Origin: Candidatus Falkowbacteria bacterium RIFOXYA2_FULL_47_19
GTDB lineage: Bacteria > Patescibacteriota > Patescibacteriia > Patescibacteriales > UBA12075
Direction of reading: 5' to 3'
DNA length: 64,000 bases
Assembly (NCBI GenBank): GCA_001780275.1
Contig: MFGB01000013.1
Span: 10,693-74,692, forward strand
Part shown: positions 16,241 to 43,955 of the stretch, piece by piece
How positions within the stretch are numbered: position 1 is the first letter of the stretch
How the letters are laid out: every line of letters starts with the position of its first letter
The notes under the pieces: generated by a model
The model's database searches: none
Told to the model about the DNA's origin: nothing
What the model saw: only the letters and a program-made list of their open reading frames with translations
Translations under genes and position numbers: made by a program

Positions 16241-16326
16241 GAATTAAAAGATAAATTGCCGTTCAGATTTCAATTAATTTGGACGGCCAACTGCAAAATT
16301 CAGCATTCCCCATGATGCATTTCCCC

Positions 16327-28300: not shown

Positions 28301-31300
28301 GTACCGAAGGCACGGTCCAGTCCTTTTATGAATCTACGCTCGTTATAACGGTTCCGGACAATCCGGATTATTCTTCGGGCTATAAATGGCAGGTTATGGC
28401 CTGCGACGACGATCTGGACTGTTCCGCCTGGGAACAATTCAATGTAACCACTCCGAATTTCAAGATCGATACGACCGATCCGTCTTCTCCGGGGCAATTA
28501 ATCGAAGCCTCGAAGACTTCCAATAGTGTAACGTTAAATTTCGGCGCGGCTACGGACGAAGATAATTTTACCGAATACCGGATATTTTATTCCACTTCTT
28601 CGCCGGTTACGGAAGCGGATTACGAGCATAACGACACGGATCTCGATTTTAAAAACTATAACGGCACCTCCGGCGTAACGATCTCGAGCTTAAATCCGAG
28701 CACTACCTATTATTTCAATATTTGGGCTTACGATATCGTCGGCCATAAAGCCAGTTCGACCGTTACGACGGTAATCTTGGAAGCGGCCGTCTCGACCCCG
28801 GGCGCGATCTTTTACACGAAAAACGACCAGGCGATCTATTACCAGGTCTGGGACGGCGCCGGCTGGGGTGTTGAGCAGTCGAGCGGCAACCTGACCGCGG
28901 CCGGCGACAATATCAGGCATATCCGGACTATACGATCCGATGACGGCGGTAAGGTCGGAATTTTGTTTAAAACCTGGGACGGGACCAATCAGGAATGGTG
29001 GGGAGCGGTTTATCGGTTCGGCGCCGACGATTTCGTGAATTATGAGATTTTAGGAACGGCCGAGGCTGACGCTACTAATAACCAGATTATAACCGGCTGT
29101 TTAACTTCGCTCTCCGGCGGAGAATTCGTCGTGGTTCGGAACGATAATACTTCAGCCGGAGCGCGCGCTTTTTCCTGGAATCCGGCGGGCGGCTGGACAG
29201 ACGAAGGCGTTATTCCGGGCACGACCGGTTCGGGCAAGATGGACGTCATGAACGGATGCGAGTTTGTCCGGCGGCCCGGCACCGATAACTACCTTCTTAT
29301 GACCTTCGATAACCTGGCGGATGTAGGCAGTATGTATTATTATGGCGGCGCAACTTTCGATAATTCGAGCGGCGCCTGGACCGCCTGGGTCGAACACTCG
29401 GATGTCGAGGAGGATACGGCAAATTACGTCGGGCAAGCTTACTTTGATCCGTCTGATAATACCCGGGGCGCGCTCTATTATTCGGATAGCAATTCCGTTT
29501 TTTACGCTCTGGCAAAATATTTCAGCGTAACCGATACTACGATAAATTACGGCGGCGCAGTTTTAAGTCCCACGACGGGAACGGAGGACTGGAACGACGA
29601 TTTCGTGCACGGCGAATTCGCGGTCAATCCCGGTTCGACAGGCATAGCTTATTTTATCGGCCGCGACATTACAGAAGAGCTGAACGTTTATAAAGTCGAC
29701 TCTTCCAATCCGACGATCGCCTGGGCGACCAGCACGAACGGCGATAATATATCCGGCGGCAATCTTTTCGATGACGGCAACTATTCCCAAAAACCGTTCG
29801 CGATAAATTTTTACAAGAACGACAAAGGCGTCGCGGCCGGAGTTTATAATACGAGCCCGACGGCGCCCTTCTATAGCGTCATTAACGCGAGTACCAACGT
29901 TTTGAGCTCCGTATCCTCGATCGAAGGCGCTACAAACGACCTTTGGACCCGGATTCGGTTTTACGACGACCCGAACGAGGATGAGTTCCTGGCTGTCATC
30001 CAGAACAACAACGTCGATTATGCCGCCGTTTTCTGGGACAGCGGCAATGAGCGATTCTATAATTCCGGTTCCCAGGCCTGGGGCGTGCGCGCGGCCGGAA
30101 CCGGCGCCGCCAGCTCCAATTTCGAATGCACTTCTTATGCCTACACAAAATATAATTCCGGACCGAACCAACCGACCGGTCTTTATCAGGCGACTTCGAC
30201 CTTCCCGGCCGCCAACCAGTCCTGGATGGCGACATCAACGATTAAATTCACGGCCTCGGCCGCCGATTACGACACGAGCGAAATCATTACCTTGTATTTG
30301 CAGCTCGTTCCGACTAACGATACTTTCACAACCTCTACCGACGAATCGACCTTCAACGCCTGCGCGATCGGCACATCCTGGACCGCCTGCAATTCCAAGA
30401 TCTGGACGATGGAGACGAGCGGCGCGGGCGATTACAGCTACACGCCTTATACCGCCACGGCCACGATAAGTTCGATCGCCTCCTCCACGACCGGCTATAA
30501 ATGGCAGGTGATCGCCTGTGATGACGAGAGCGAATGTTCGATCTGGAAAGCCTATAACGCGACCACGCCGAATTTTTACGTCGATACCGAGGCTCCGTCC
30601 GCGCCCGGAGCCTTAAATCCGACGGCCAGGACAAGCTCTTCCGTAACCCTTAATTTCGGCGCGCAAACGGACGAACCGGCCGTAAGTTTCTCCCGCTACC
30701 GGATATTTTACGCGACCTCGACGCCGGTTTTCGAGATTTACGAATGGACCGACACTGACCTTAATTTCCGCAATTACAACGGCACGACCAATACGGTCGT
30801 AACCGGCCTGGCTTCGAATACGCTTTATTATTTCAATATCTGGGCTTACGACAAAGCCGGAAACTCGGCCAGCTCGACCATAGTTGCAACCACGACCAGT
30901 ATGAACGCCAATCTCGTCCAGACCTCATTTATCCTCGAAAACGACGATGGGTCAACGGTAAACAATAATACGGCCGAAGTCGCTGCTTCAACTACCCTGA
31001 CCGGCCTTAATATCGGCGAACGCCTGAACGCGCGCATCCAGGTCGAGAATAACGGCGGCGATATTTCTTCCGGCAAAACCTATAAGCTCCAGTTCGAAAA
31101 TTATTCCGGCAATCCCGGCGTCTGGAACGACGTGGGCGCGGCCACATCCGTGAGTTTCGCTTTCGGTCTGTCCGGCGCCAACGGCGATGCGGTCGTGCCG
31201 GATAAAGCCTCGCCGAACGGCCTGACGCCGAAATACGGCACCTGGCACGAGAATACGAACACGACCGCCGCCTTTACCTTAAGTAACGGCGAATATACGG

Positions 31301-34017
31301 AATTCGTCTTCGCGGTTCATGTCGGCTACGCGGCCACGAGCACGACTTACCGCCTGCGGCTTTATAACGCGACCGATAATAAGCCGCTCGACAGCTATAA
31401 TAATTATCCGATGTTTTCGACCGTAACCACGGAAACCAAACGTTATTCTAAGGGCTTCTACGCGAGTCTGCCCGCAACGGCCGCTGATCTCACTTATTTC
31501 CTTGATCCGGAAGGCTACGCCGACGTCCTAACGGACGATTCTAATTATGATCCGGCCACTTCCACGGCCCAGTATCCGATCTTCCTATTCGCGACTAAAC
31601 ATACGAATAACACGAATGCGGCCTCAAGTACCTGGAACGGCCAGTCGTCCGTGGCGCCGTCAGGGAGTAACGTCGTGCTACAGGTTTTCCGGGTAAGTAC
31701 CGCCGCCTGGGTAACCGTGGATACTGAAACAGCAGCTGGCGCCAATACTGACTTCACTCTGACCGGAGCGGTAAATTCCTCCGTGTCCGATTATTATGCG
31801 GCCGGCGACTGGATCTATTGGCGCGTGTATCAGGTCTCGGGAAGCGAATCGCTCCGGACCGATCGTTACGTTGCCAATTTCGCTCCGCCCGCCGCTGATA
31901 CGGCCCAGATCCATTACCGTTGGCGCCAGGATGACGGCTCCGAGACGACCGCCACCTGGCTCGAAGCCGAAGATACCGGCAGCGCGACTTTAGGGCCGCA
32001 GCTCGGCCGGGGCAGTTCCACCCGTATCCGTATCGCGGTTACCAATACCGGCGGGGGCACTGCTACCGATTATTATTACAGATTAGAATATGCTTCTTCG
32101 ACCGACGGCTGCGCTACCGACCCGGCCTACTGGGCCGCGGTGCCGATCGCGGCCGGGAGCGACCATTTCGAAATGGCTCCGAGCGGCAATTTTTCTAATA
32201 ATTTTCCTACCACTGCGCAAACTGCCAATACTGAAGGTTATACTTTTATAGCCGGAGAAATGATTAAAGATCCGCTTGCCCTTACTGGAGAGATAGATTT
32301 ATCCGAAAACCAATATACCGAACTCGAATACATGATCCAGGTAACCAATAACGCGCCGGACGCGGCTACGTATTGCTTTCGGGTAACGAATAACGGCGCC
32401 GTACTTAATTCTTATGATATCTATCCGATAGTGACTTTATCCGGCAATACCAATAACGCCCCTCATTTCACGACCGATCCGGCCGACGGCGGTTCAAGCG
32501 CGGCCGACCCGACCGATTACGGCGATAATGTCGATTTTACCGCGGTTGCGGCCGATGACGACGGCGACAGCTATTACTTAGCGGTCTGCCGGACCGCGGC
32601 CGTTTCCCCGGGCCTTGACGGAGCGCCGAGCTGCCCCGGCGGAGCCTGGTGCGTCTCCGGCCAGACGGCGAGCAACGGGAACGCCTCCTGCAGCTATACG
32701 ACCGCCACTACGACCGAAACGAACGCCTGGTACGCTTATGCCTGCGATAAAGTCCCGGGCTTCGGTATTGCCCGATGTTCGGCCGTATCCCAGGGCTCGG
32801 GAGATCCGGATGAAGATTCGCCCTTCATAATAAATAATCCGCCGGTATTCACCTCGGTCGTTACGACCGTAAATAACCAGGATCCGGGCGGGACTTTTTG
32901 GATAACCGCTTACGCGACCGATACGGACACGGCCGGCTCCGCCGATACTTTAAGGCTCCGCGTCTGCACGACCAATAACGGCGCTTTCGGCGGCTGTATC
33001 GACGGCGCTTACTGCTCGGAACTGGCTTCGAGTTCGCCGAATACTTCCTGCTCGTTCGCAACCTCTACTCCTGCGCCCGCCGGCAACTGGAATTATTACG
33101 CTTTCGTTTATGACAGCCACGGTCTGGCCGCCGCCGCCAATTCCCGTTCGGGTACCTACACGGTCAATAATACCGCTCCGACTATCGGCACTTTTTATCT
33201 TAACGACGGAGACGATATCCAGCTGAATTTAAAGGATGACGCCGATACCGTTATTTCGACCATCGGCGGGAGCATCCAGGATTTGAATGGCTGTACCGAC
33301 CTGGATAGCGTGATCGGAACCATCTATATGTCCGAAGAGGAAAATACCTGCGATGACGACCCGAATAATTGCTATCAGATTCCCTATAATACCGGCATGA
33401 CGACCACCTGCACGATCGCCTGCGACCCGACCGATCTGACCCGGGCTTCTACCACCTGCACGGCTGAATTTAAATATTTCGCGGTTCCGACCGATGATGT
33501 TTACGAGTCTAATCCCTGGAAGGATTATAATTGGCTTTCTTATATTCTATTGAACGATGGCGTCAATCTGGCGGCCTCCACCTCCCAGGGAGTGGAGCTC
33601 GGCACGAATTTAGCCTTAGACGTGGTCGAAAGTACGATCGATTTTGGTACTTGGGGCGCCGGTCAGAATACCGGCATGAATAATTCCACCACTACCGTGG
33701 AGAACGCCGGTAATTCTCCGATTGACGTTGAGGTTTACGGCACGACCATGTTCTCGAATCCGCCGGCCGGCTACGATATCGCCGTGAACCAGATAAAATT
33801 CAATAATGTAAACTTCAATTATGTGTTTGAAACAAACACCCTGGATACCGTCGCTAACCCTAAACCCATAGAGCTATTCGCCCCCCGGGCCACGACCACC
33901 GCCGGTTCTATGGACGACGTTTATTGGGGCATCGGCATTCCGTTTTTGGCCGTGCCGGCGAATTATATAGGCGAGAATACTTTTACCGTGTGGATTGACG
34001 AGGATGATTGGAATTAG
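16327..34017 (+). CDS. Giant modular cell-surface protein (~5,900 aa)
   Basis: An uninterrupted ORF runs 16279-34017 (TTG 16279, ATGs at 16312/16315/16327); the start is taken at MQKLRGYF... followed by a signal-anchor helix. Domains seen are an acidic low-complexity region, 2 x DUF2341-like (WLYRKKITINA...YIYYGN) plus LamG-like units, 5 x FN3, 4 x GYKWQV[LMI]ACDD Cys-pair modules, 3 x RWRQDDG-type beta domains, a glycine-rich domain and a C-terminal Ig-like triple module. Confidence 0.9.
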   Translation: MQKLRGYFSNLFVKLGLLILFLLAVFGYTQGRFIFVQAVADELNIYPGNYAAEGGENEFTWQNTDNTFTQDLGSNAQFGEFNIDNSAFISLRTFEEIAPASAEATAGKNNDGGEESAETDGEDGADTSETDEGSGDETVGESAPDETPDDEVGDSDNTDATSEEESGTVEVIDLSEIPADTLITNYEGGETSNNNGGGNETPPAESASESASEPAPEVPAAESTPTGDSGGETSRIWNRIKSLAVYLDFFRSKLVWAQESLENFIEGSEEEAGSVPLATDNNFIAELDFIKQSLIFSDFFVPAEYHDNDIKDLKLRVSLAARSDFIDDYIRLEYRTENGWRLLGEINALSDVSNSLNSDYFAFSLPATVGWDEIKDLSVRVSYINTNPPEARAGKTLEIYLDALWIEIGQENAISDEELELNPDEEDASTTEEELPEILPADLRDDFELITLTPKNDFKNNEKPQFKFRFKKKRNLLEGLGAGFLDVFRDEYKDISIRAEAVNGRGQTESEIELTVNYLSDGEFAVNIIKQSRQFKPGKFNIKISIASDSLTVGRTVDFSQDFTWGVLALNTNKSIYESGENAYLQIAVLDDLGDTLCAVDFIELEIKAPDGGIAYLRDTNDLIISNPECGPNNVITSPDFYAYYGVGPLGAYEMTLRVQTENGEREITDVFEVRAPDEAIFSVERIGPTRIYPKADYDMGFRIIPQADFRGNFVEVVPANFKITEQKRNGALIPILVRDKTNAQTGEMEQEIIWKVDWRAGREYVLSYTFDAPNISPEFFLLGPARLYGKIAIWDETGVREELTDFTEIRQWQIASDALSIIYTKQTAGVEIDGTDYDIINSITGFSESEYVLFGGVGNITADGGTTRIETSLATADGSGLLTETDEENEGPNADDRWAYFAMTKRIMSSSDTIYLHGYDYTGSGEADESFLMGMDMSTMGTESIDYFWDNDAVVDGTILTTIAGENNRASITFTPDGVSQYLIIASARIDAQVESEIGEMAIWNGSASIVNHIRDNEDTADEPLLFAATTTIPAAVSTTYSVRVRGETNNSIDYLSSSILVIRLNYYENFSCDAKANAGNVGTSPTIMASTDLQLSEAGDVTVLYFGGFSSPAQDSEVSFRARQDASIRFQLTEGDTGNEPGRNAVWDTGDVHNLLWLDNISGVNTNSHAYDLAMEASAVGPTAPWAMVCAWSEAEYVPPPDVNVSATGTQVSTIDINSQDNYVGGKFVLTNSSSTAITVNSINIVELGTVNASTSLENIRLYYDLDTTLPYDCTSTSYDLSDLQFGATSTAFSDTNGTSTFSGSVNISATSSMCVYVVLDVNSNADKDETLEVEINNPSTDVGLSAGARVGPVTSVELSGTTVLYAPDVMATAYEQRKSDNFTDIANQGWTNENQVNLYALAQAMGGATTTYYDFYFELLDESGTYTTATSAPGSPCLENVIYDNCANKVWLASSTLPGWYNGSWLYRKKITINAAQVVANETGFPVMATTTDSDFAHTSFGGKMASSSAADIVITDSDGLTVLNYEREYYAPATGQIALWIKTDISSTTNKELYIYYGNAGISADQSTTTGVWDDNYMGVWHMNNNPAGTAPQLRDSTKNAHHATANGAWNIGDLVSTPMGQGIDSPGVNNQEFQIANSGNWLNGLTNMSVEIWLDSNVINADMGIITCDEASEDSSYVMMRYDTSGWAGGGDDVIKVINQYESASYVQSANRQYLGYSWTASHDIDFYVNGSIDTPTSDGGSSFTSISGCNTFLIGDGGNVPSGNWNGIIDEFRISSTTRSAARFRTQNNNYGNVNNFLTFGNEESSSQIITEGVVNLTAIPDRGSSTDPTKGYKWQVLACDDKGSCSNWDAFNSTLPNFKVDTAAPDAPGSLTLATSTATSITVEFHNETTEPNFAYYKIFYKAGFSGVDTDDTEHDDPDLDHIDYNNTSTTTITGLIPETQYVINIWAYDLAGNKTGATEITVTTPSAPHARARSVLFHAGDYSGDGSTGQDTNTDQVFDTFNFELAETGAEIKNAYILFETHFEAYNTTAGDYSGYNLSFDACSEPCTADAGSGSGRILVDSNSVLSYDETAGKQARLLADVTEEVQLSAYTGSGADMEAQIGYRLETDVTGPSIAYARAVLVVTYSYDDDNSTNLTNTVIYPLESTASGDQGSKLAVQADDCTKSPLPSSNCALFDYNMVIPEVSAKLSQWFELYGVNDGHGASDVAINANIEGSNVDSDTYYHESVLAGTQGNFPRVIIDNVTGYSENIAQVFEYALTSPGGGQYYALGGEVIETYTAPRSAGTKTRTVSFPIGLVFDNRGSMSASAQVYFPENGSGSGVVDIKKAWFRLIGDNYNTGAYGLAVSSKVGNNSVTATSTYALNAGATVIRPSYNIVHVIPSADYSELEAANATAPKEVTVNATTTAVSSPDMGAVSAELMITYTYTGETSGYLTSLNLFGGQSDQHGASQADTETAADAVFPELRGEETLRAAALLGSFSLSASDGTMPGTWFYMDANIATGTPACSTSTGYMARDDAVNGYAEFYQDVFSAMSTDDDESYSVCYANDNAADTNAGARMNAVWLYTYQWDAPPPAFTQSDWRWYNNADSIAPGTARAAEKTSITGVNIGEAIRLRVNIGITSEDLAAMTSAFKLQYGKASDCASLGESDWTDLGGVAGSEAWRGYNNPDPGDGTTLSAAVLSSSDVAESYEESNNSASNPRAIDIGEYGEWDWVVYNNAASSSADYCFRMVESDGTVLNDYLSDSYPKLTTAPANTAAASASNLAQYRNNGTTAIANNSWVNENTVKLRAAATDPNISERIALYYEIASSSSGSFTTATTSPASWCYAGTAWGSCPSRIWAATSSLGDYRTSPFTATATIPGLPESSEGYKWQVLACDDDGACADTWTKYNLTIPNFKIDTVAPTPPGNLTFASSTATMISLTFGASTTEANFDRYRIYYRAGVAGVTESDSQHTDNAALLFKNYGGYGTTTVFNLSAGTNYVFNIWAYDLAGNKATATIEATGATDPSFTPPLGYFTIGGSAERTNGSGVVDITIQVDDPDNDDTVRAKIMYKSGAVCSSGMFSEGYSDPTLDATDANISATYGDPDIDNAYPYQVGTTSSFILTSGAGDNFVLFDWLSMTDLAGVEGDYCLGLVVNDGMYDQLATNTIAVEIDNKLPAVPGYLRLESKHYDSIELRFGTTSADTHFTEYKVFYKEGTAGVTEADTVFDKTDDPDLDDVNFGGTSTTTITGLNPNTTYVFNILAYDSYGNKATATTELTVKTNARPTNISADGQYLDDGVTPIVNGSWIDENNVIFRASAHDQDAADLVTFYYQLITATGTYLSSLTPPGNTCVYGTTFLACDSKVWAVSTSTSDLPADWYDSNWLYRKKITINASQVPANASDFPILATTTDANLAGKARSDGYDIIFTAADGTTPLDYEREYYNGATGQLAVWIETDLSSTTDTELYMYYGNSGANIDPATTTGVWDSSYRGVWHLEENVVDEGSSADAHEDSCSYANNADQYGNNEYSSWIYRGQDFDGLNDYISVPDHSSLDLSDALSVEFWIEGAASEQTATKTVYSAAGNDTFTVPPGVTAVTLKSWGAGGGGGGGSATGGVPNTRNGGGPGGGGAFVQGTLSVEPGQILDITVGGGGTAGTLVTTSGQGGGGGGRSSVYRSGTPLVIAAAGGGGGGGTNDEAAQGETGGAGGAIQGEDGGDTNGSVGGGGGTQSAGGTAGTGTNTGTAGGSLTGGAGADGRNNQGADGSGPAGGFGGGAAGGQGDAAGTYPAGGGGGAGYYGGGGGGEAAGSLNGGAGGGGGSSFVSASVTATTTTGGSGYTPANTGDSDYESNTGAGGDGGAAGGSGANGGSGLVVVSYTPAVTIVGKGNDAYQISLDGDMNIFAQINSQPVSTQIVPGWHHIVMTYDRSAGGTDELKLYVDGVLRDTADFSSVVNTNNSVVKIGELFDGLVDELRISGIARSSGWIQTAYNNQRGVANFLSFGTEGTVQSFYESTLVITVPDNPDYSSGYKWQVMACDDDLDCSAWEQFNVTTPNFKIDTTDPSSPGQLIEASKTSNSVTLNFGAATDEDNFTEYRIFYSTSSPVTEADYEHNDTDLDFKNYNGTSGVTISSLNPSTTYYFNIWAYDIVGHKASSTVTTVILEAAVSTPGAIFYTKNDQAIYYQVWDGAGWGVEQSSGNLTAAGDNIRHIRTIRSDDGGKVGILFKTWDGTNQEWWGAVYRFGADDFVNYEILGTAEADATNNQIITGCLTSLSGGEFVVVRNDNTSAGARAFSWNPAGGWTDEGVIPGTTGSGKMDVMNGCEFVRRPGTDNYLLMTFDNLADVGSMYYYGGATFDNSSGAWTAWVEHSDVEEDTANYVGQAYFDPSDNTRGALYYSDSNSVFYALAKYFSVTDTTINYGGAVLSPTTGTEDWNDDFVHGEFAVNPGSTGIAYFIGRDITEELNVYKVDSSNPTIAWATSTNGDNISGGNLFDDGNYSQKPFAINFYKNDKGVAAGVYNTSPTAPFYSVINASTNVLSSVSSIEGATNDLWTRIRFYDDPNEDEFLAVIQNNNVDYAAVFWDSGNERFYNSGSQAWGVRAAGTGAASSNFECTSYAYTKYNSGPNQPTGLYQATSTFPAANQSWMATSTIKFTASAADYDTSEIITLYLQLVPTNDTFTTSTDESTFNACAIGTSWTACNSKIWTMETSGAGDYSYTPYTATATISSIASSTTGYKWQVIACDDESECSIWKAYNATTPNFYVDTEAPSAPGALNPTARTSSSVTLNFGAQTDEPAVSFSRYRIFYATSTPVFEIYEWTDTDLNFRNYNGTTNTVVTGLASNTLYYFNIWAYDKAGNSASSTIVATTTSMNANLVQTSFILENDDGSTVNNNTAEVAASTTLTGLNIGERLNARIQVENNGGDISSGKTYKLQFENYSGNPGVWNDVGAATSVSFAFGLSGANGDAVVPDKASPNGLTPKYGTWHENTNTTAAFTLSNGEYTEFVFAVHVGYAATSTTYRLRLYNATDNKPLDSYNNYPMFSTVTTETKRYSKGFYASLPATAADLTYFLDPEGYADVLTDDSNYDPATSTAQYPIFLFATKHTNNTNAASSTWNGQSSVAPSGSNVVLQVFRVSTAAWVTVDTETAAGANTDFTLTGAVNSSVSDYYAAGDWIYWRVYQVSGSESLRTDRYVANFAPPAADTAQIHYRWRQDDGSETTATWLEAEDTGSATLGPQLGRGSSTRIRIAVTNTGGGTATDYYYRLEYASSTDGCATDPAYWAAVPIAAGSDHFEMAPSGNFSNNFPTTAQTANTEGYTFIAGEMIKDPLALTGEIDLSENQYTELEYMIQVTNNAPDAATYCFRVTNNGAVLNSYDIYPIVTLSGNTNNAPHFTTDPADGGSSAADPTDYGDNVDFTAVAADDDGDSYYLAVCRTAAVSPGLDGAPSCPGGAWCVSGQTASNGNASCSYTTATTTETNAWYAYACDKVPGFGIARCSAVSQGSGDPDEDSPFIINNPPVFTSVVTTVNNQDPGGTFWITAYATDTDTAGSADTLRLRVCTTNNGAFGGCIDGAYCSELASSSPNTSCSFATSTPAPAGNWNYYAFVYDSHGLAAAANSRSGTYTVNNTAPTIGTFYLNDGDDIQLNLKDDADTVISTIGGSIQDLNGCTDLDSVIGTIYMSEEENTCDDDPNNCYQIPYNTGMTTTCTIACDPTDLTRASTTCTAEFKYFAVPTDDVYESNPWKDYNWLSYILLNDGVNLAASTSQGVELGTNLALDVVESTIDFGTWGAGQNTGMNNSTTTVENAGNSPIDVEVYGTTMFSNPPAGYDIAVNQIKFNNVNFNYVFETNTLDTVANPKPIELFAPRATTTAGSMDDVYWGIGIPFLAVPANYIGENTFTVWIDEDDWN
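19927..19935 (+). repeat. C9 homopolymer inside the giant ORF
   Basis: gtg ccc ccc ccc gac encodes VPPPD and is codon-aligned. Losing one C gives a TAA 17 codons downstream. Gaining one C gives cga cgt TAA immediately. Confidence 0.95.
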
Positions 34018-34074
34018 CTTTGGCGTTAGGGCGTTAGGCTTTAGGCAATAGGGGTTAAGGCTTTAGGATTTTGG
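34017..34074. repeat. Direct low-complexity TTAGG/TTAGGG word repeat
   Basis: gctttggcgttagggcgttaggctttaggcaataggggttaaggctttaggattttgg lies directly after the giant gene's stop. Confidence 0.8.
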
Positions 34075-34118: not shown

Positions 34119-34248
34119 CAAGACACAAGGACACAAGATACAAGCTCCAAACAAATCTCAAACTTCAATAATCAAACAATTAAATTTGTTTAGTATTTGC
34201 AAAATTGTGATTTGGAATTTGTTTGTATCCTTGTATCTTGTATCCTTG
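34119..34248. repeat. Low-complexity hairpin element, 'GATACAAG' family, copy 2 (5' leader of the 34262 gene)
   Basis: caagacacaaggacacaagatacaagctccaaacaaatctcaaa ... tttggaatttgtttgtatccttgtatcttgtatccttg. It ends 13 nt before the ATG. Confidence 0.8.
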
Positions 34249-34261: not shown

Positions 34262-35845
34262 ATGTTGAAGTTAAATAAATTTTTTTACCTTAATATTCTC
34301 CTATTCTTCCTGGTCATGGCCGGCGTCTTCGGGGTCGGTTTTTTCGTGATGCATAAGACCAATGCTTTGTTCGCCGCGGAAGAAGAGACGGATTCTACGC
34401 CGCCGGCCATATATAATATTAATGTCGATAAAATAAGCGCCACTTCATCGGAAATAACCTGGGAAACCGATGAAGCGGCCGATTCTCTCGTGAATTACGG
34501 CCTGGATAAATCTTACGGCGTGGTCCGCGATCCCCGGGCCGATAAAACTGAACACGCTATTCTTCTCGATAACCTGGAGGCCGGGAAAACTTATTATTTT
34601 CGGGTAACCTCTTCCGACGCGGACGGAAACCAGAGCATATCGAACGATTTTAGTTTCCTTACCCCTAAAACAGAGAAAGAATTGATCTCCGAGGTTCCTT
34701 CCGAGAATATAATCGAAGCAGGAGAAGGGGGGTTGAAAGACTTGATTACGGAAGAGGGAGTAGGGGGATTATCACAGCGGGGAGAGGAGGTTCTATTGAA
34801 GCTTATTGAAAACATTACCAGCGAGGAAGTTTTGGAGGAAGTTAAGGAAAAAGTCGAAGAAAAAGCCGAAGACGTGCTTCTTCCGCCGACCATTATCCTG
34901 GATTACGCGGACGTGGAGGTGGGTACCGATTACGCGATTATTACCTGGGAGACCGACAAAGAGTCCAATACGATGGTAGCCCTCGCCGAAGACGATGATT
35001 ATGACTCGGTATCCGAGAATCCGTATACATGGAAAGAAGGGGAGCCGGATGAGTTCGTACTTAAGCATCGAGTCGAAGTTACCGGTTTGACGCCGGCTAC
35101 CACTTATCATTTTCAGGTTTCTTCGGAATCATCCCTGGGCCTTAAGGGCATTTCCGGCGATAAAACCTTTAAAACCAAGTCGATCCTGCCGGAAATTTAC
35201 AATATCCAGATAATTAAGATCGAAGAGGAGTCGGCGACGATCAGGTGGGTAACGAACGTTCCCTGTTCATCGATCATAGAATATACCAACCTTAATTCCG
35301 GCGACACAAAATTAGAGGGTAATTCAAGTTTTTTGACGATTCATTCCATGAAGCTGACCAACCTGGTTTTCGATACTTATTATTCCGCCGTTATCAGGGT
35401 GGAAAGCGAAGAAGGGGAAAAGGCTGAAAGCGAACCCCTGACTTTCATCACGACCAAAGACGAATACCCGCCGATAATTTCAAAGGTAAAGACAGAGTCC
35501 ACCCTTTATCCCGGGTCGGACAATAAAGTGCAGACGATCGCCAGCTGGGAAACCGATGAGCCTTCCAAATGCCAGTTGTTTTACCACCAGGGACTCGTTA
35601 CGATAGACGAGCCGAGTAGTTTACCCCTGGAAAACGATCTCGCGGCCAGGCACGTCCAGGTGGTAACTAATTTTATACCCTCGACGGTATATAAATTTTG
35701 GATAATCTGCGCGGATGAAGCGGAAAATAAGGCCAAATCCGAGGATTTTACAATGTTAACCCCGTCCCAGGAAGAAAGCATCATCGATATCATCCTGAAG
35801 AATTTCGAAAGCTCCTTCGGATGGGTTAAGAAATTGAAGATCTAG
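34262..35845 (+). CDS. Membrane-anchored protein with four FN3-like repeats
   Basis: N-terminal TM segment, then four repeats of the type PP.I.N+.+..I....A.I.W.T+E...S.V.Y...........H.V.+..L...T.Y+F.V.S (for example TYYFRVTSSDADGN and TYHFQVSSESSLG). Confidence 0.8.
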   Translation: MLKLNKFFYLNILLFFLVMAGVFGVGFFVMHKTNALFAAEEETDSTPPAIYNINVDKISATSSEITWETDEAADSLVNYGLDKSYGVVRDPRADKTEHAILLDNLEAGKTYYFRVTSSDADGNQSISNDFSFLTPKTEKELISEVPSENIIEAGEGGLKDLITEEGVGGLSQRGEEVLLKLIENITSEEVLEEVKEKVEEKAEDVLLPPTIILDYADVEVGTDYAIITWETDKESNTMVALAEDDDYDSVSENPYTWKEGEPDEFVLKHRVEVTGLTPATTYHFQVSSESSLGLKGISGDKTFKTKSILPEIYNIQIIKIEEESATIRWVTNVPCSSIIEYTNLNSGDTKLEGNSSFLTIHSMKLTNLVFDTYYSAVIRVESEEGEKAESEPLTFITTKDEYPPIISKVKTESTLYPGSDNKVQTIASWETDEPSKCQLFYHQGLVTIDEPSSLPLENDLAARHVQVVTNFIPSTVYKFWIICADEAENKAKSEDFTMLTPSQEESIIDIILKNFESSFGWVKKLKI

Positions 35846-36316
35846 GGATTGCCGATTGACGATTTTCGATTGGCGATTGACGACATAAACAGAGGTTTTA
35901 TTTATGAATCAGGAAATACTAAAAAAAAGATTCAAGGATTTCGCCTTACGGATCATGAAATTAGTACGAGCATTACCGAAAACGATTGAAGGCAAAGCTG
36001 TTGGTAACCAGATATTCCGTTCCGGAACGTCCTCTGCGGCCAATTATCGCGCCGCTTGCCGCGCCAGATCAAAAAAAGATTTTATCGCTAAATTAGGCAT
36101 AGTTGAAGAAGAGTTAGATGAAACTATGTTTTGGCTGGAAATGATTATGGAAAGTAATATGATGAAGCGCCAGCTTTTAACCCCGCTTTTTGACGAAGCT
36201 AATGAATTGCTGTCCATTACTATTAAGTCAAAAGTTACGGCCAGAAAGAATAATCAAAAATAAATACGAAATAAGATTGCATCAATCGGCAATCGAAAAT
36301 CGTCAATCGGCAATCC
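35846..36316 (+). mobile_element. IVS-like cassette: ~38-bp inverted repeats enclosing a four-helix-bundle gene
   Basis: IR-L is ggattgccgattgacgattttcgattggcgattgacgac (35846-35884). IR-R is gcatcaatcggcaatcgaaaatcgtcaatcggcaatcc (36279-36316). The cassette starts 1 nt after the upstream stop and ends 1 nt before the downstream ATG. Confidence 0.6.
35904..36263 (+). CDS. Four-helix-bundle protein (family formerly called '23S rRNA intervening sequence protein')
   Basis: 119 aa with FKDFALRIMKLVRALPKT..., ...GNQIFRSGTSSAANYRAACRARSKKDFIAKLGIVEEELDETMFWLE, the typical signature of this family. Confidence 0.85.
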   Translation: MNQEILKKRFKDFALRIMKLVRALPKTIEGKAVGNQIFRSGTSSAANYRAACRARSKKDFIAKLGIVEEELDETMFWLEMIMESNMMKRQLLTPLFDEANELLSITIKSKVTARKNNQK

Positions 36317-37639
36317 ATGGAACCTATTATAAAATTAAAAGACCTGGAAATTACCTATAATTTAGGGAAGGTCAACGAATATAAAGCCACCAAAGGGATG
36401 AATATGGAAATTTATCCGGGGGAATTCGTGGCTTTTTTCGGTCCGTCCGGCTGCGGCAAATCGACCGTTTTTTACAGTATTTTAGGAATTCTTGAGCCTT
36501 CCGACGGCCAGCTTTTAGTTAAAGGCCAGAATCCGTATTCATATTCACCGGAAGAGATGGTCCGGTTCCAGACCAAGACGATCGGTATAATATACCAGGC
36601 CTTTTATCTTATTAATTCGATCTCGGTCATCGATAACGTCGTTTTGCCGCAGATCTTCCACGGGGTTAATCCGCGCCGGCGGGAGGCCTGGGCCAGGCAG
36701 CTTTTAAAGCGTTTCGGCATGGAGGGTCAGGGAGAAAAATACCCCGATAACCTGTCCGGCGGCCAATCACAGAGAGTTTCCGTCGCCCGATCGATGGTTA
36801 ATAATCCCGATATTCTTTTGGCGGATGAGCCTACCGGCAACCTGGACAGCGTTTCCACGAAACAGGTAATGACCTCTTTGGATGAGATCAATTCCGTGGA
36901 TAAGAAAACGGTAATTATGATCACCCACAACGCCGCCCAATTAGCTTACTGTCACCGAGTGTTTTATATGAAGGACGGGCTCCTGGAACGGGTCGTGCCT
37001 AATCCTGATAAGAAGCAGATCGCTAAAATTGACAAGCAGAAGATATTGGTAACGGAAATGGACCAGTTGTCAAAGATATTCCCTTATAATTCGCCGACCG
37101 AACTTAAGGTAAAAAGCCTGGTCAACTACATGACCCAGGACCTTAATTTTCACCAGTTGCAAAGATTGGAAGAGCTCGTTAAATACGTGGTAGAAAGGAA
37201 AATGGACAAGAAGGAATTCCACCGTATCTTAAAACGGAATTATCCTGACGGAGGCATCGGTGTTTCGGAGGCGTTAGCCGAAACGATGGCCGACAAAGTC
37301 GATAAAGTGATCCGGCAGTCGGAGGATGCGCGCCGTTTTCGGCGCCGATTCCTGTCCAATAATTTTTTCGCCGAGGAACCGGAATTGATCTCGAGACTTA
37401 CCAGATATATAGCAGAAGAGAACGAAGGGGAATTGGCGTTCGTGCAGAAAAAAAGGCTTAAGGAGCTTGTTTATAACCGGATCTCCGGTTTGATCTCCCG
37501 GGAAGAATTCAAACTTACCTTGCGCCGCTCCCTGGACGAGGGAGGGGTGGGAATAAGCAAAAACGCTTCCCGCAAACTGACGAATCATTTCGAGAAAATA
37601 CTTATCCAGGGAAGCGAAGACCCGGGACACGGACATTAA
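36317..37639 (+). CDS. ABC transporter ATP-binding protein (MacB/LolD-like) with a ~210-aa C-terminal extension containing a tandem duplication
   Basis: Walker A GPSGCGKST, signature LSGGQSQRVSVARS and Walker B LLADEPTGNLD. The extension repeats are ...QLQRLEELVKYVVERKMDKKEFHRILKRNYPDGGIGVSEALAETMADKVDKVIRQSED and ...QKKRLKELVYNRISGLISREEFKLTLRRSLDEGGVGISKNASRKLTNHFEKILIQGSED. Confidence 0.9.
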   Translation: MEPIIKLKDLEITYNLGKVNEYKATKGMNMEIYPGEFVAFFGPSGCGKSTVFYSILGILEPSDGQLLVKGQNPYSYSPEEMVRFQTKTIGIIYQAFYLINSISVIDNVVLPQIFHGVNPRRREAWARQLLKRFGMEGQGEKYPDNLSGGQSQRVSVARSMVNNPDILLADEPTGNLDSVSTKQVMTSLDEINSVDKKTVIMITHNAAQLAYCHRVFYMKDGLLERVVPNPDKKQIAKIDKQKILVTEMDQLSKIFPYNSPTELKVKSLVNYMTQDLNFHQLQRLEELVKYVVERKMDKKEFHRILKRNYPDGGIGVSEALAETMADKVDKVIRQSEDARRFRRRFLSNNFFAEEPELISRLTRYIAEENEGELAFVQKKRLKELVYNRISGLISREEFKLTLRRSLDEGGVGISKNASRKLTNHFEKILIQGSEDPGHGH

Positions 37640-37643
37640 TTCA

Positions 37644-37706
37644 GGGCGTTAGGGTTATAGGCGTTAGGACGTTAGCTAACGCCTAAAGCCTAAAGCCTAA
37701 AAGCTA
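37644..37706. repeat. Intercistronic hairpin, 'TTAGG/CCTAA' family
   Basis: gggcgttagggttataggcgttaggacgttagc | gctaacgcctaaagcctaaagcctaaaagc. It fills the gap from the ATPase stop (37639) to the permease ATG (37712). Confidence 0.85.
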
Positions 37707-37711
37707 ATCAT

Positions 37712-38908: not shown

Positions 38909-38922
38909 TTGATGACAAAATA

Positions 38923-39056
38923 TTGGATATTAGATATTGGATATTGTGATACAGTAAGAAAGCGCACAGCACAGTAGAAATGTTAATTCGATATACATCA
39001 AGCATAATTGGCGGAATTTAAGATTGTAGCATAATATCTAATATCCAATATCTAAT
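38923..39056. repeat. Low-complexity hairpin element, 'GGATATT' family, copy 2
   Basis: The left arm is identical over 32 nt to 8709-8740. The right arm is gtagcataatatctaatatccaatatctaat. Confidence 0.8.
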
Positions 39057-41366: not shown

Positions 41367-42524
41367 GTGAGAAGAGCCGGTATAGTCAGCCTTATTTTAT
41401 TCTTGTTTATGGCCTGGACAACCCCTGTCCTGGCTGGTTTTGGTATTTCCCCTCCTAATGTCCGTACCAGCAAACCGGTATTCGCCGGTTCTCATTTCGA
41501 ACAGAAGATCACTCTCCTGCGTTCCTCCGCGGAAGAGGTTTTAACCGCAAAGATCGCGGTTAACGCGCCGGAGATCGAGGATTGGATCAAGATCGACCAG
41601 GGGTTCGAATTCGACCTTCCCAAGGGCAATACCCGCGTGCCCATGATCGTTATCGTGGACATACCCAAAGACGCCGAGATCGGCGAATATAAAGGCTATA
41701 TGAACGTTAAGGTTGTACCTAAGGAAAGTACCGGCGGCGGCGGCGTAGCTATCGCTTTGGGCGCGCGGATCGAGATCGATATTACCGTGACCGATGAACC
41801 GTTTCTGGAATTTCTGGTCCGTAAGGTGGAGATCCCGGATTTCAAAACATTGGGAAAACCCTGGAGTTGGAAAATATTCGCGCGACTTTTCGATCGGCTA
41901 TTTTATCACATAAACGTGCCGATGAAGATCGAAAATACGGGCAATATCAAAGTGGCGCCGACCAAGGTTGTCTTGGACGTTTATGACCGGCTAGAGAAAG
42001 AGATGATCGAAACCTATACGGACGAGTCCATAAAAAAGGTCCCGCCCTTTTCTACCGAAACCGTTAGCGCGTCCTTTGCCACGAAGCTGCCTCCCGGCGG
42101 CTACTGGGGGCAGGTAAAGATATATAAGGACAACGAGATCATCCGCAAGGACAAGCTTTTATTCCAGATCGCTCCTTACGCGGGCGAGGGCTGGGATACC
42201 GGTCCCGGCGCCTGGGCCTGGGTAACGCTGGGAACGATCGTTTTAATATTGCTGATCATTGTTTTCGTGTTGATAAAAATTAAAATTTGGCGAAATTTAT
42301 TCAGGATATTGTTTATTTTATCCTGGCCGGCGCGATTCGTCTGGCTGAAAATAAAACAAGCCGCCGCCGCCCTGAAGCTTAAATTCTGGCAGTGGATGCA
42401 TAAAAAGTCGGCCCAGTACCAGGGTGTCGATATCCAAACACCGGCAGAAAACCCAAAAACCACCGCTGTCGCTCCCAGGTCAAAACGACGGCAGGATGTC
42501 GTTAATTTAAAAGATGACAAATAG
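41367..42524 (+). CDS. Surface protein with signal peptide, beta-rich ectodomain, C-terminal TM and a basic tail
   Basis: GTG start. Signal MRRAGIVSLILFLFMAWTTPVLA, C-terminal TM WVTLGTIVLILLIIVFVLI. No enzymatic motif recognised. Confidence 0.7.
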   Translation: MRRAGIVSLILFLFMAWTTPVLAGFGISPPNVRTSKPVFAGSHFEQKITLLRSSAEEVLTAKIAVNAPEIEDWIKIDQGFEFDLPKGNTRVPMIVIVDIPKDAEIGEYKGYMNVKVVPKESTGGGGVAIALGARIEIDITVTDEPFLEFLVRKVEIPDFKTLGKPWSWKIFARLFDRLFYHINVPMKIENTGNIKVAPTKVVLDVYDRLEKEMIETYTDESIKKVPPFSTETVSASFATKLPPGGYWGQVKIYKDNEIIRKDKLLFQIAPYAGEGWDTGPGAWAWVTLGTIVLILLIIVFVLIKIKIWRNLFRILFILSWPARFVWLKIKQAAAALKLKFWQWMHKKSAQYQGVDIQTPAENPKTTAVAPRSKRRQDVVNLKDDK

Positions 42525-42590
42525 CTTTTAGGTTTTAGCTTATAGCTTTTAGGCTCAACTAACAGCTATAAGCTAACAGCTATAAGCTCA
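42524..42590. repeat. Intercistronic hairpin (AGCTTATAGCT/AGCTATAAGCT words)
   Basis: gcttttaggttttagcttatagcttttaggc ... aacagctataagctaacagctataagc. Confidence 0.75.
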
Positions 42591-42597
42591 AATCTAA

Positions 42598-43866
42598 ATG
42601 TCCCCATGCTTGTTCAAATCAGTTATTTTTATATTTTTTGCCATGGCGATTTTCTCGCCGGGTTTTTTGTTGCCTGAAAAAGTGTCCGCTGCCGGTTCTT
42701 TGCCCACCTATATTGAAGTGCAGCTGTCTTGCGGCGATGGTTACGCCGAGATCATGAGCGGGGAAGCCTGCGATCCGGGCACGCCGCCCGATATTCCGGA
42801 AGACCTGGGAACGACTACCTGCGCCAGTTTTAACGACGTTTTCGGAAATCCGTTCGTAAGCGGAAATCTTGATTGCCTGTCGGATTGTACCGCTTTCGAT
42901 TCCGACATGTGCTATTCTTGCGGCAACGGAGCGAAGGAGGTGGCGGAAGAATGCGATGGCTCTGATTTCGCGGGAAAAACCTGCATTACCCTGGGATATC
43001 AGAGCGGAGCTCTGGTTTGCAGTCTTGATTGCCGGGTAAGCACCGCCGGCTGCGTGCCAATGGAAACGCAGCCCGGAACCCCCGGCGGCGGCAGCCACGG
43101 CGGCGGTTCCGGCAGTGCTTCGGGTTTTCTCCCCGGTTCTAATACGGAGTCGGTCACTAAGGTCATAGCGCAGGGCAAATCATATCCGCATGCCGACGTG
43201 CACATACTGGTCGACGGAGTGGTTACCGGAATCGTAAAGACCGACGCTTTGGCTAATTTTTATTTTGAAACCGTTGACATAAAGCCCGGAGTCGCCGGTT
43301 TCGGATTCTGGTCGACCGACTTAAACGGCCTTAAGTCGACGCTTCTTACCTTGACCTTCCGCGTCATCTCCGGGGCCGTAACCACTATTTCCGGCGTTTA
43401 TATCGCTCCGACCATCGATATCGACAAACAGTCGGTAAGACAGGGCGAGCCCATAAAAATATTCGGCCAGACAGTTCCCTCGACCGAAGTGCATGTTCAT
43501 ATCAATTCGGAAAAGGAATTCATAGAAAAAATAAGCAGCGCGGAAACCGGCAGCTGGGAATTATCTTTCGATACGGCGCCCCTGGAAGAGGATCTGCATA
43601 CCGCCAAAGCCTTATTCCAGGTAGCGACGGAAGGGAATATCGTGAACAGCGGTTTTTCCCGGTCGGTCAGCTTCTATGTCGGTAAGACCGGCGGCGAAGT
43701 ACCTTGTCCGGAAGCCGATCTAAATCATGACGGCCGGGTGAATCTGACCGACTTTTCCATTCTTTTATATTGGTGGGGAACCGATAACGCTTGCGCCGAC
43801 CAAAACCAGAACGGCGTTGTCGATCTGGTGGATTTCAGTATCATGATGTATTATTGGACCGGTTAG
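42598..43866 (+). CDS. Secreted protein with Cys-rich CG(D/N)G...EECD repeats and a C-terminal type-I-like dockerin
   Basis: Signal peptide, then two Cys-rich repeats (CGDGYAEIMSGEACD / CGNGAKEVAEECDGSD). The C-terminus DLNHDGRVNLTDFSILLYWWG...DQNQNGVVDLVDFSIMMYYW contains two Ca-binding dockerin segments. Confidence 0.75.
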   Translation: MSPCLFKSVIFIFFAMAIFSPGFLLPEKVSAAGSLPTYIEVQLSCGDGYAEIMSGEACDPGTPPDIPEDLGTTTCASFNDVFGNPFVSGNLDCLSDCTAFDSDMCYSCGNGAKEVAEECDGSDFAGKTCITLGYQSGALVCSLDCRVSTAGCVPMETQPGTPGGGSHGGGSGSASGFLPGSNTESVTKVIAQGKSYPHADVHILVDGVVTGIVKTDALANFYFETVDIKPGVAGFGFWSTDLNGLKSTLLTLTFRVISGAVTTISGVYIAPTIDIDKQSVRQGEPIKIFGQTVPSTEVHVHINSEKEFIEKISSAETGSWELSFDTAPLEEDLHTAKALFQVATEGNIVNSGFSRSVSFYVGKTGGEVPCPEADLNHDGRVNLTDFSILLYWWGTDNACADQNQNGVVDLVDFSIMMYYWTG

Positions 43867-43945: not shown

Positions 43946-43955
43946 AACTAAATTT

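Follow-up and report, generated by a model that had tools for sequence, protein, structure and literature searches.

The 471-nucleotide (nt) unit at positions 35846–36316 of the window (the whole 64,000-nt stretch of Candidatus Falkowbacteria DNA analysed here) is, in our assessment, probably an acquired element of the intervening-sequence (IVS) type, carried in operon mRNA at the stop/start junction between two genes of a CPR-type bacterium. It consists of a gene for a four-helix-bundle (4HB) protein enclosed by arms of tandem heptamers. The 4HB family was first found inside the intervening sequences of 23S rRNA, and ORF-bearing IVSs of this kind (S23p), present in Leptospira, Coxiella burnetii, Haemophilus and Brucella, have the same architecture as the cassette. 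Since the early 1990s it has been asked what the IVS/S23p protein does and how rRNA intervening sequences arose. Our comparisons show that a much more widespread unit, made of a 4HB gene and a heptamer-repeat stem, has the rRNA IVS as one of its habitats and is commonly located at the junction of two co-transcribed genes. New here are the heptamer arms, the recurrence across more than ten phyla and the flush stop/start placement of free-standing 4HB cassettes; already known was a PF05635 ORF with a stem bearing heptameric repeats inside rRNA, as in the Coxiella IVS (PMC4990558). Heptamer-armed free-standing PF05635 cassettes are undescribed in the literature searched, which covered few subscription journals and leaves an earlier description possible.

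The original prediction had the unit filling the whole gap between an FN3 gene and an ABC ATPase gene, and the codons on either side bear this out. On the forward strand, as are all features described here, the upstream host gene (34262–35845; 527 amino acids with FN3/purple-acid-phosphatase-N repeats) ends in a TAG (35843–35845) that lies at the stem base, and the downstream host gene (36317–37639; a MacB/FtsE-type ABC ATPase of 440 amino acids) begins at the ATG at 36317–36319. The 5′ arm (35846–35880) comprises the five tandem heptamers GGATTGC, CGATTGA, CGATTTT, CGATTGG and CGATTGA (TRF: period 7, 5.3 copies) and is followed by a 23-nt spacer (35881–35903) with a Shine–Dalgarno (SD)-like AGAGG at 35891–35895, 8 nt before the ATG of the 4HB gene (35904–36263; 119 amino acids, pI 9.9). 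An 18-nt spacer (36264–36281) separates the stop of this ORF from the 3′ arm (36282–36316), five AATCGNN-type heptamers (TRF: period 7, 4.7 copies) that run flush to the ATPase ATG. Each arm is thus an array of five 7-nt units, of CGATTNN type when read in the orientation of the 5′ arm. The FN3 gene was not truncated by the insertion, as its C terminus, FGWVKKLKI-stop, is conserved in orthologues; the N terminus of the ATPase, MEPIIK, is likewise conserved. The 3′ arm takes up the place where an SD sequence of the ATPase gene would lie, leaving this gene without one, and within the stem the ATPase ATG faces the TAG of the FN3 gene. An independent assembly (L098) has identical arms at the same site, so the cassette is no assembly artefact; L098 is the same strain and, with its arms identical, is uninformative about arm dynamics.

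The inverted repeats are as near-perfect as first claimed. An inverted-repeat search returned 40-nt arms at 35841–35880 and 36282–36321 with 93% complementarity, within which the core arms (35846–35880 and 36282–36316) pair at 34 of 35 positions with a single mismatch, slightly better than the 33 of 36 originally given; a 34-nt arm pattern found 0 matches over 100 shuffles. The predicted RNA fold of the unit (MFE −142.7 kcal/mol, z = −5.4) is closed by this terminal stem, with 401 nt between the arms, and the stem extends so that the stop-codon region of the FN3 gene pairs with the start-codon region of the ATPase gene. This extension and the quintuple heptamer arrays had both been missed in the original prediction. 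The cassette therefore has the long terminal inverted repeat that serves as the enclosing stem of an IVS and, as in Coxiella, a stem region with heptamers arrayed in tandem, here five units per arm. A scan for promoter-like or terminator-like signals inside the cassette found none above shuffle expectation, and the 23 nt between the 5′ arm and the 4HB start are too few for a promoter. We rejected an intrinsic terminator, which would be a short GC-rich stem with a U tract, given the 401-nt loop and the lack of a U tract after the stem. Nor is the cassette an IVS inside a 23S or 16S rRNA gene: the flanks are protein-coding, and at the gathering threshold Rfam identified no rRNA and no other RNA family across the window.

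The ORF belongs to the rRNA-IVS four-helix-bundle family, as had been recognized from the letters alone, with above-threshold matches to PF05635 (E = 3.3e-15; 56.6 bits, cutoff 33.8) and TIGR02436 (E = 6e-23; 81.2 bits, cutoff 24), as well as a match to PDB 2RLD (E = 2.9e-15). The AF2 monomer model (pLDDT 95.9), with helices at residues 3–23, 28–52, 57–83 and 89–115, adopts the four-helix-bundle fold of 2RLD and 2GSC, and its best Foldseek matches are 2RLD (TM 0.86–0.91), 2GSC (TM of around 0.8) and Avd (4DWL and 8UB7). Across 33 4HB sequences, 23 residues are invariant; the cassette ORF is intact, has the SD-like motif in front of it and evolves under purifying selection. Solved 4HB relatives have five chains (five in 2RLD). 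Avd, of diversity-generating retroelements (DGRs), shares the fold (TM of around 0.8) and is also small and basic, and the family members with solved structures form pentamers and bind nucleic acid or reverse transcriptase; Avd differs in having only about 10–15% sequence identity to the cassette protein and in its association with both a reverse transcriptase and a pair of template/variable repeats, which were found neither among 40 scanned window proteins nor by a window-wide inverted-repeat scan, respectively. Because the homologue Avd binds nucleic acid as a pentamer, the 4HB protein may bind the heptamer arms.

The unit had been proposed to be either a mobile insertion or an excisable RNA module, and a comparison of the orthologous FN3–ABC–FtsX loci of relatives supports the insertion half of this alternative. 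The FN3–ABC junction holds a 310-nt non-coding nested hairpin in L091 (the ATPase of which is 90% identical), a 78-nt hairpin in L001, a 165-nt element in L092 and L096, and only 3 nt (TAA CAA ATG) in L094, which provides the empty-type site that a comparison with loci lacking the cassette had been expected to define. In L001, a 71%-identical cassette lies one junction further downstream, between the ABC and FtsX genes. The GC3 of the cassette is 0.40, compared with 0.56–0.58 in the neighbouring genes, a foreign composition that would indicate recent import. The RNA-module half is supported as well, by the promoterless 23-nt spacer, by the co-direction of upstream genes (75 of 79 loci, below) and by the parallel with the Coxiella IVS, with excision itself a supposition; the two halves are not mutually exclusive. 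Mobility is slow or episodic, as the only other sample of the species (L098) has an identical cassette and a cassette is conserved at one junction across Pyrinomonadaceae. The window holds one full cassette and one solo arm, and tblastn with 82 homologues revealed no further 4HB genes or remnants in it, nor a remnant in the L091 gap (best E of about 0.1–0.3). A domain scan of 40 window proteins found no transposase, integrase or reverse transcriptase, and the filled site compared with the L094 empty site, in sequences that have diverged, displays no visible target-site duplication.

The same layout recurs well beyond these loci. We assembled 82 homologous loci from more than ten bacterial phyla, 77 of which could be scored for flanking inverted repeats; 68 of the 77 reached a score of at least 30, compared with 2 of 274 shifted controls. 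The best arm period was 7 in 63 loci and 8 in 12. The upstream gene is co-directional in 75 of 79 loci, with the 5′ arm starting a median of 1 nt past its stop, and the downstream gene in 53 of 71, with the 3′ arm ending a median of 3 nt before its start; several loci are flush on the 5′ side and have more than 300 nt free on the 3′ side. This recurrence in more than ten phyla suggests that gene and hairpin behave as one acquired unit. The flanking genes are unrelated across the 82 loci. An SD-like motif precedes the 4HB ORF in only 17 of 82 and is therefore uninformative across phyla. A Mantel test links protein identity to heptamer type (r = −0.35; 0 of 2,000 permutations), and two cassette lineages retain distinct heptamer units within the same MAGs. 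Four CPR relatives carry CGATTNN arms at four different junctions; these arms, and the tracking of protein clade by arm type, led us to reject insertion of the 4HB gene into a hairpin already present at the site. Heptamer arms are absent from the single phage homologue that we inspected, and the cyanobacterial 4HB genes of L099 and L100 are flanked by period-7 arrays.

We propose that the element, having no promoter of its own, would be transcribed by read-through from the FN3 gene. The arms would pair in the transcript to form a duplex of approximately 35–40 bp that loops out the approximately 400-nt 4HB mRNA and brings the UAG of the FN3 gene face to face with the AUG of the ATPase gene, an arrangement that would make the insertion close to neutral for the operon. 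On terminating at the UAG, a ribosome would open the stem base, which would free the SD-less AUG and keep translational coupling, with little untranslated, unstructured RNA exposed. As a long perfect duplex is a substrate of RNase III, the 4HB mRNA could be excised in the manner of an rRNA IVS; we assume the presence of RNase III in this genome, the domain scan having found no gene for it in the window. Arms and ORF would move as one unit, both between junctions and between genomes. Gene and hairpin are probably folded, and possibly cut, in the mRNA; we infer that the arms pair in vivo, that RNase III cuts them and that coupling is kept, and likewise whatever role the protein may have.

The closest known systems are the ORF-bearing IVSs of 23S rRNA. 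That of Coxiella has an S23p ORF with a 28-bp terminal stem, carries tandem heptamers whose number varies by strain, and is cut by RNase III (PMC4990558). Insertions in CPR 16S and 23S genes also carry 23S_rRNA_IVP ORFs (PMC11270868). The cassette resembles these rRNA IVSs in protein family, in the terminal stem around the ORF (28 bp in Coxiella compared with 35–40 bp here), in the tandem heptamers of variable copy number in the stem region (PMC4990558), in being promoterless and part of a larger RNA, and in its sporadic, horizontally transferred occurrence (PMC4990558, PMC11270868). It differs in its host, an operon mRNA, and in its stem base, which is formed by stop and start codons instead of by the halves of helix 25 or 45. 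The ORF of Coxiella is in decay and apparently unexpressed (PMC4990558), which we count against our preferred reading, whereas the cassette ORF retains its integrity, its SD-like motif and its selective constraint; RNase III cleavage here is putative. Correia elements, as well as ERIC and REP/BIME/REPIN, are similarly inverted-repeat elements in the intergenic parts of operons and are co-transcribed, and the CREE hairpins of Neisseria are bound by RNase III, which cuts them or leaves them protected, and are present or absent between strains (PMC2649163). Elements of the Correia/ERIC/REP type are non-coding, 100–150 bp long and bounded by unique-sequence TIRs with a TA duplication, unlike the cassette, which has coding cargo, tandem-heptamer arms and a placement exactly at the stop codon. 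The period-7 tandem arrays in the intergenic DNA of Beggiatoaceae, cyanobacteria and Bacteroidetes (cyanobacterial STRR and TAACTGA repeats) are also akin to the arms. Most commonly a TAACTGA array stops 1 nt short of a start codon that lacks an SD, and in some cases it overlaps the stop codon of the preceding gene (PMC4679880); these arrays have been described as direct repeats, with neither an inverted partner nor a link to a protein gene, and the literature searched yielded no connection of PF05635 to intergenic heptamer repeats.

Several observations sit uneasily with the preferred reading: the mismatches between arms are poor in G·U, the stems of many relatives are only 75–90% complementary and no transposition chemistry is apparent. 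We examined the arm mismatches of the relatives for the wobble signature of a sense-strand RNA helix and did not see it, sense G·U (72) being fewer than A·C (123) and G opposite A being the commonest mismatch (102). This spectrum suggests that part of the constraint may fall not on the sense RNA but on the DNA, the antisense strand or the 3′ arm, the last as an A-rich region for initiation. It also fits the most serious rival, which we nevertheless regard as unlikely: a DNA-level transposable element, in which the heptamer arrays would be inverted subterminal iterons bound and synapsed by a basic 4HB pentamer, a host or trans-acting enzyme would cleave the strands and the RNA stem would arise only as a side effect. 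Tn7, Mu and En/Spm have such inverted subterminal iterons at their ends. Presence or absence and relocation between adjacent junctions, the foreign GC3, arms that follow the protein clade with two lineages keeping their own units in the same MAGs, and the approximate agreement of four to five units per arm with a pentameric family (2RLD has five chains) would all be expected of such an element, as would the dispersed ORF-less hairpin families, one of which has 26/26-nt identity between species at different sites. The absence of a visible target-site duplication (in diverged sequences) and of a transposase, integrase or reverse transcriptase in the window weighs against it, as does the nature of the protein, a 119-amino-acid helical bundle without a known catalytic motif. 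Co-orientation with the upstream gene in 75 of 79 loci and a start at its stop codon are not obviously required of a DNA element.

Hairpins without an ORF bear on a second rival. In nearly every co-directional gap of the region, a heptamer hairpin lies flush with the stop and start codons, and the genes that follow these hairpins are without SD sequences. One such hairpin, built of TTAGGCN units, fills the ABC-to-FtsX junction (37640–37711), the same junction that holds the 4HB cassette in L001; it is approximately 100% identical to its L091 orthologue, compared with approximately 80% for coding DNA, and differs from it by one 7-nt unit indel per arm at mirror positions, which we count in favour of a constraint on pairing. 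These features, together with the highly conserved protein and its invariant residues, would suit a host-beneficial intercistronic regulatory device, comparable to REP/BIME, Correia and other intercistronic stem-loops, in which the stem sets how stable or how well translated operon segments are relative to one another and the 4HB protein is an RNA-binding regulator of it. We consider this improbable: the FN3–ABC junction of relatives works with unrelated inserts or a 3-nt gap, so no specific element is required there, the low GC3 points to recent import, and the flanking host genes are unrelated across the 82 loci. Least probable by far is a DGR accessory protein, or else chance or an assembly artefact: the likeness to Avd (4DWL, 8UB7) and the standing of PF05635 as the commonest DGR-linked Pfam family (PMC10053308) speak for the former, which we rejected as the 40 scanned proteins contain no reverse transcriptase domain, the window-wide inverted-repeat scan found no template/variable repeat pair and the phage homologue has no heptamer arms, and the latter is countered by the identical cassette in L098 and the lack of shuffle matches to the arm.

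The IVS-type element in operon mRNA, which remains our preferred reading, may be part of something wider. Tentatively, and with clearly less confidence, we suggest that 4HB cassettes and the ORF-less heptamer hairpins of the same genomes could form one unrecognized pan-bacterial class of elements that colonizes the 'tips' of RNAs, namely the ends of rRNA helices and the stop/start junctions of mRNAs. The 4HB pentamer might then recognize the 7-nt units, at about one unit per subunit and four to five units per arm, and might drive spread, symmetric gain and loss of units, or protection from RNase III. If this is true, the IVS protein family would acquire a function and the STRR-type heptamer repeats of cyanobacteria an explanation. 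More broadly, the cassettes provide a link to the abundant unexplained intergenic heptamer repeats of cyanobacterial, Bacteroidota and CPR genomes, and they affect the annotation of compact genomes, in which heptamer hairpins replace SD regions. The rules are simple and testable: unit type tracks clade, the 5′ arm begins where the upstream gene stops and the 3′ arm reaches to the downstream start. Among the carriers are bacteria that can be cultured and manipulated genetically, namely Bacteroides (B. thetaiotaomicron with BT_0352-type loci, B. salyersiae DSM 18765 as L055 and B. rodentium JCM 16496 as L072) and Nostoc (N. punctiforme PCC 73102, with pNPUN01 as L099), so that RNase III cutting, coupling and heptamer binding become directly testable.

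The original prediction had also noted a solo arm at 15462–15492 and suggested that ORF-less hairpins elsewhere in the window might be miniature derivatives of the cassette. The solo arm is indeed an array of about 4.3 AATCGNN units in the orientation of the 3′ arm (TRF and repeat search) and is the only array outside the cassette in the window to share its CGATTNN unit; no partner arm lies within 650 nt (15050–15700), and tblastn with the 82 homologues found no 4HB remnant near it. The proposal for the hairpins holds in part: they share with the cassette the heptamer arms and the stop-to-start architecture, but their units differ from those of the cassette, so we rejected simple derivation from it. 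A true miniature that carries the unit of its own cassette occurs in another genome, at 2266–2378 of L029.

The cassette (35846–36316, 471 nt) lies between the TAG of the FN3-repeat gene (35843–35845) and the ATG of the ABC-ATPase gene (36317–36319), and thus occupies the gap completely. A repeat search delimited inverted repeats of 40 nt with 93% complementarity around its four-helix-bundle (4HB) open reading frame (ORF) (35841–35880 and 36282–36321), the core arms of which (35846–35880 and 36282–36316) contain 1 mismatch in 35; the arm pattern had zero matches in shuffled sequence. Both arms are built from five tandem 7-nt units (in the 5′ arm, GGATTGC CGATTGA CGATTTT CGATTGG CGATTGA), and the two variable bases that end each heptamer are mirrored between the arms. 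A 23-nt spacer follows the 5′ arm, with AGAGG 8 nt upstream of the 4HB ATG, and 18 nt separate the ORF stop from the 3′ arm. When folded as RNA, the arms are predicted to form the closing stem (−142.7 kcal/mol, z=−5.4), and further outward pairs (T35841–A36321, C35842–G36320, T35843·G36319, A35844–T36318 and G35846–C36316) extend it past the cassette, setting the stop-codon region opposite the start-codon region. The GC content (38.9%) and GC3 (0.40) are below those of the flanking genes (46–47% and 0.56–0.58), which indicates a foreign origin.

The ORF (35904–36263, plus strand) encodes a basic protein of 119 amino acids (pI 9.9) that matched PF05635 (23S_rRNA_IVP; 56.6 bits, cutoff 33.8) and TIGR02436 ('four helix bundle protein'; 81.2 bits, cutoff 24) in profile searches, with BT_0352 (PDB 2RLD, E=2.9e-15) as the nearest solved relative. 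Its AlphaFold model is a four-helix bundle (pLDDT 95.9), for which the top structural matches were 2RLD, 2GSC and Avd (4DWL/8UB7), a protein of diversity-generating retroelements (DGRs). These results bear out the original prediction of a four-helix-bundle ORF within near-perfect inverted repeats, in a 471-bp unit filling the whole intergenic gap.

Comparison of the FN3–ABC–FtsX locus on six further contigs shows that the cassette is an acquisition at this site. In the orthologous locus L094, the FN3-to-ABC junction is 3 nt only (TAA CAA ATG) and the ABC-to-FtsX junction 6 nt, providing the cassette-free site that had been sought; the other junctions are differently filled, in agreement with the insertion reading put forward originally. 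L091, with an ABC ATPase of 90% amino acid identity and coding DNA of about 80% nucleotide identity to the window, carries a 310-nt non-coding nested hairpin between FN3 and ABC (2191–2500, z=−9.5), in which no 4HB remnant was found and whose outer arm is identical at 26/26 positions to a window hairpin at another junction (42522–42547); between ABC and FtsX, it shares the window's TTAGGCN hairpin. L001 has a 78-nt heptamer hairpin at the first junction and, at the second, a 4HB cassette that is 71% identical and has CGATTNN arms; its 5′ arm is also duplicated internally (2745–2852) and broken by an assembly gap. In L092/L096, the junctions are 165 nt and a 74-nt gap with no obvious heptamer hairpin. 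The FN3 C terminus and the ATPase N terminus are conserved in all of the compared orthologous loci, so the inserts occupy precisely the space separating the native stop codon from the native start codon, and no target-site duplication was visible in these junctions.

Homologues of the 4HB protein number in the thousands (at least 7,992 at E≤0.001 among 8,000 candidates scored), and 23 residues are invariant among 33 sequences. The survey covered the window, 4 loci from metagenomes and, of the 80 best genomic loci, 78 (51–63% identity), drawn from Acidobacteriota, Verrucomicrobiota, Bacteroidota, Planctomycetota, Chloroflexota, Desulfobacterota, Methylomirabilota, Lentisphaerae, Ignavibacteria and CPR groups. 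We aligned the 200 nt upstream of each gene to the reverse-complemented 200 nt downstream; on this measure, 68 of 77 scored 4HB loci reached an inverted-repeat score of at least 30, compared with 2 of 274 shifted positions within the same loci (medians 43 and 17). The best arm period was 7 in 63/77 loci and 13/274 controls, and 8 in 12/77 and 13/274, the units being variants of GATTnnn, GGAATnn and CATTTAC. Unit type follows protein clade (Mantel r=−0.35, 0/2000 permutations), a correlation confounded by host phylogeny. Two cassette lineages with different units occur within the same MAGs (L019/L044 and L043/L077), and all four CPR relatives (65–71% identity) have CGATTNN-type arms, each at a different junction. 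As heptamer arms recur around relatives at differing junctions, with unit type following protein clade, the arms and ORF are, on this comparative evidence, one unit and not a property of the local site; together they are shown to be conserved and to move as a whole.

The design recurs in cultured cyanobacteria: 4HB genes are accompanied by GTCGGAG/GTCGGAA arms in Nostoc punctiforme pNPUN01 (L099 1420–1980) and, in a Planktothrix agardhii plasmid (L100 1190–2040), by GATTTAC arrays starting inside the TGA of drmD. The Planktothrix gene sits between this DISARM gene and an MmeI-type restriction–modification gene, with a complete hairpin on either side, and Nostoc is the source of 18 of 34 plasmid records with a match. 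Two genomes have a second 4HB cassette less than 1 kb from the first (L042 3991–4433 and L064 3942–4391); the second PF05635 gene of L042 is of a divergent 'NIAEG' type with GGCAGAA arms.

The cassettes are placed behind a co-directional gene, flush with its stop. By simple ORF calling, the nearest upstream ORF (at least 100 amino acids) was co-directional with the 4HB gene in 75/79 loci, and the 5′ arm began a median of 1 nt past its stop (−15 to +20 nt in 70/75), the stop commonly overlapping the first unit (for example, T-GATTTGC, T-AATTGCC and TA-AATGCGG). Downstream, the ORF was co-directional in 53/71 loci and the 3′ arm ended a median of 3 nt before the start codon, so that an A-rich 3′ arm takes the Shine–Dalgarno position of downstream genes. 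These counts are approximate, as loci were picked by protein similarity and ORF calls are crude, and the effect is large regardless. Several loci are flush on the 5′ side with more than 300 nt between the 3′ arm and the next large ORF, and the flush 5′ boundary is therefore not merely a shortage of space.

The Coxiella burnetii 23S rRNA intervening sequence (IVS) is 428–444 nt long, has an S23p ORF and a 28-bp closing stem, and is removed by RNase III. Its tandem GACAGAT heptamers differ in number from strain to strain, and the 5′ cleavage site is at the first of them (PMC4990558). CPR 16S and 23S insertions also contain 23S_rRNA_IVP ORFs (PMC11270868). Every one of these parts except the rRNA host is present in the window cassette (an Rfam search of the window returned no rRNA); the cassette is thus not an IVS by location, and by analogy is an element that would work like one. 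We propose that the cassette is transcribed by read-through, that pairing of its arms in the mRNA extrudes the 4HB message as a loop, and that RNase III would cut the ~35–40-bp duplex as in rRNA. With stop and start codons at the stem base, a terminating ribosome would open the lower stem and free the Shine–Dalgarno-less AUG, preserving across the cassette the coupling of a 3-nt junction such as that of L094. Little naked RNA would be exposed after arm pairing, and limited Rho-dependent polarity is suggested as an added effect. For the protein, binding of the heptamer arms is the most testable idea, suggested by its strong conservation, basic charge, pentameric relatives and the matching of unit type to protein clade.

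Arm mismatches fit this proposal imperfectly. Across 82 4HB loci (the window and L001–L090), 83% of 3,198 aligned arm positions are Watson–Crick pairs, and sense-strand mismatches include fewer G·U (72) than A·C (123), the commonest being a 5′ G opposite a 3′ A (102); the 3′ arm therefore contains more A than a perfect complement would. If selection acted on a sense-strand RNA helix alone, the bias should run the other way. Possible causes are selection of an A-rich 3′ arm for initiation, a DNA-level constraint or repeat misregistration in the alignment. The bias leaves room for a model in which the arms are iteron-like subterminal repeats bound in DNA by a 4HB pentamer, which we consider unlikely overall. 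A DGR role for the gene is excluded or very unlikely, the one phage-borne homologue examined (34% identity) lacking arms. The same holds for an intrinsic terminator, as a promoter and terminator scan of the cassette gave no signal above chance (the space is also insufficient for a promoter). An artefactual repeat is very unlikely given the shuffles and L098, a separate metagenome assembly of the same species with the same cassette at the same site and identical arms.

Period 7 is the dominant tandem-repeat period of the window, and from 5.8 to 44 kb the majority of co-directional gaps are occupied by ORF-less hairpins with heptamer-periodic arms (5868–5967, 7012–7106, 7577–7674, 8708–8851, 9832–9910, 11435–11518, 16118–16246, 34119–34248, 37645–37703, 38920–39056, 42522–42590 and 43863–43950), alongside solo arrays at 12053–12081 and 34017–34071. 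The hairpins abut both the upstream stop, which often falls within the first unit, and the start codon on the downstream side, and the genes that follow have no Shine–Dalgarno sequence. The ABC-to-FtsX hairpin is ~100% identical between the window (37640–37711) and L091 (3824–3908), against about 80% for coding DNA; the sole difference, one 7-nt unit gained or lost per arm at mirror positions, is a compensated change, which argues that pairing is maintained. These hairpins fall into at least six unit families of two or more copies each and resemble the cassette in architecture but not in unit; the cassette unit recurs in the window only in the array at 15462–15492, the solo arm noted originally, which has no partner arm within 650 nt and no ORF remnant. 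The suggestion that the hairpins are miniature derivatives is plausible generally, an ORF-less hairpin at L029 2266–2378 sharing the unit of the neighbouring cassette, but is not supported for those of the window, in which the units differ. We counted 54 period-7 tracts outside the cassette in sequence flanking 4HB loci of many phyla, many folding as ORF-less hairpins, compared with 0–9 for each of periods 5, 6, 9, 10 and 11. Separately, a perfect (GAAATTG)x4.1 array (47882–47910) lies inside the tyrosyl-tRNA synthetase gene (46878–48095), an essential gene that copy-number change would frameshift, and the convergent-gene gap at 13662–14037 is predicted to fold with unusual stability (−184.7 kcal/mol over 386 nt) and includes a pair of perfect 24-nt palindromic arms (CCCCTCTCCAATTCTGGAGAGGGG) as well as G-rich 17-nt repeats.

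Inverted repeats around S23p/IVP genes in rRNA have been known since the 1990s, when a mobile origin was proposed (Ralph and McClelland 1993, as cited in PMC4990558), and the STRR and TAACTGA repeats are known examples of heptamer repeats in intergenic DNA (PMC4679880). In the literature searched, coverage of which is incomplete, we found no description of a free-standing cassette, embedded in mRNA, being the general form of the family, of cross-phylum heptamer arms of 4HB cassettes or of their stop-to-start placement. Genes for reverse transcriptase, transposase, integrase and RNase III are all absent from the window, a region of type IV pilus and surface proteins in a CPR-like genome; among its genes are those for PilB/PilC/PilM, pilins, tRNA synthetases and a MacB-type transporter. 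A single ORF (16279–34017) immediately upstream of the FN3 gene encodes a protein of 5,912 amino acids, probably a giant surface protein.
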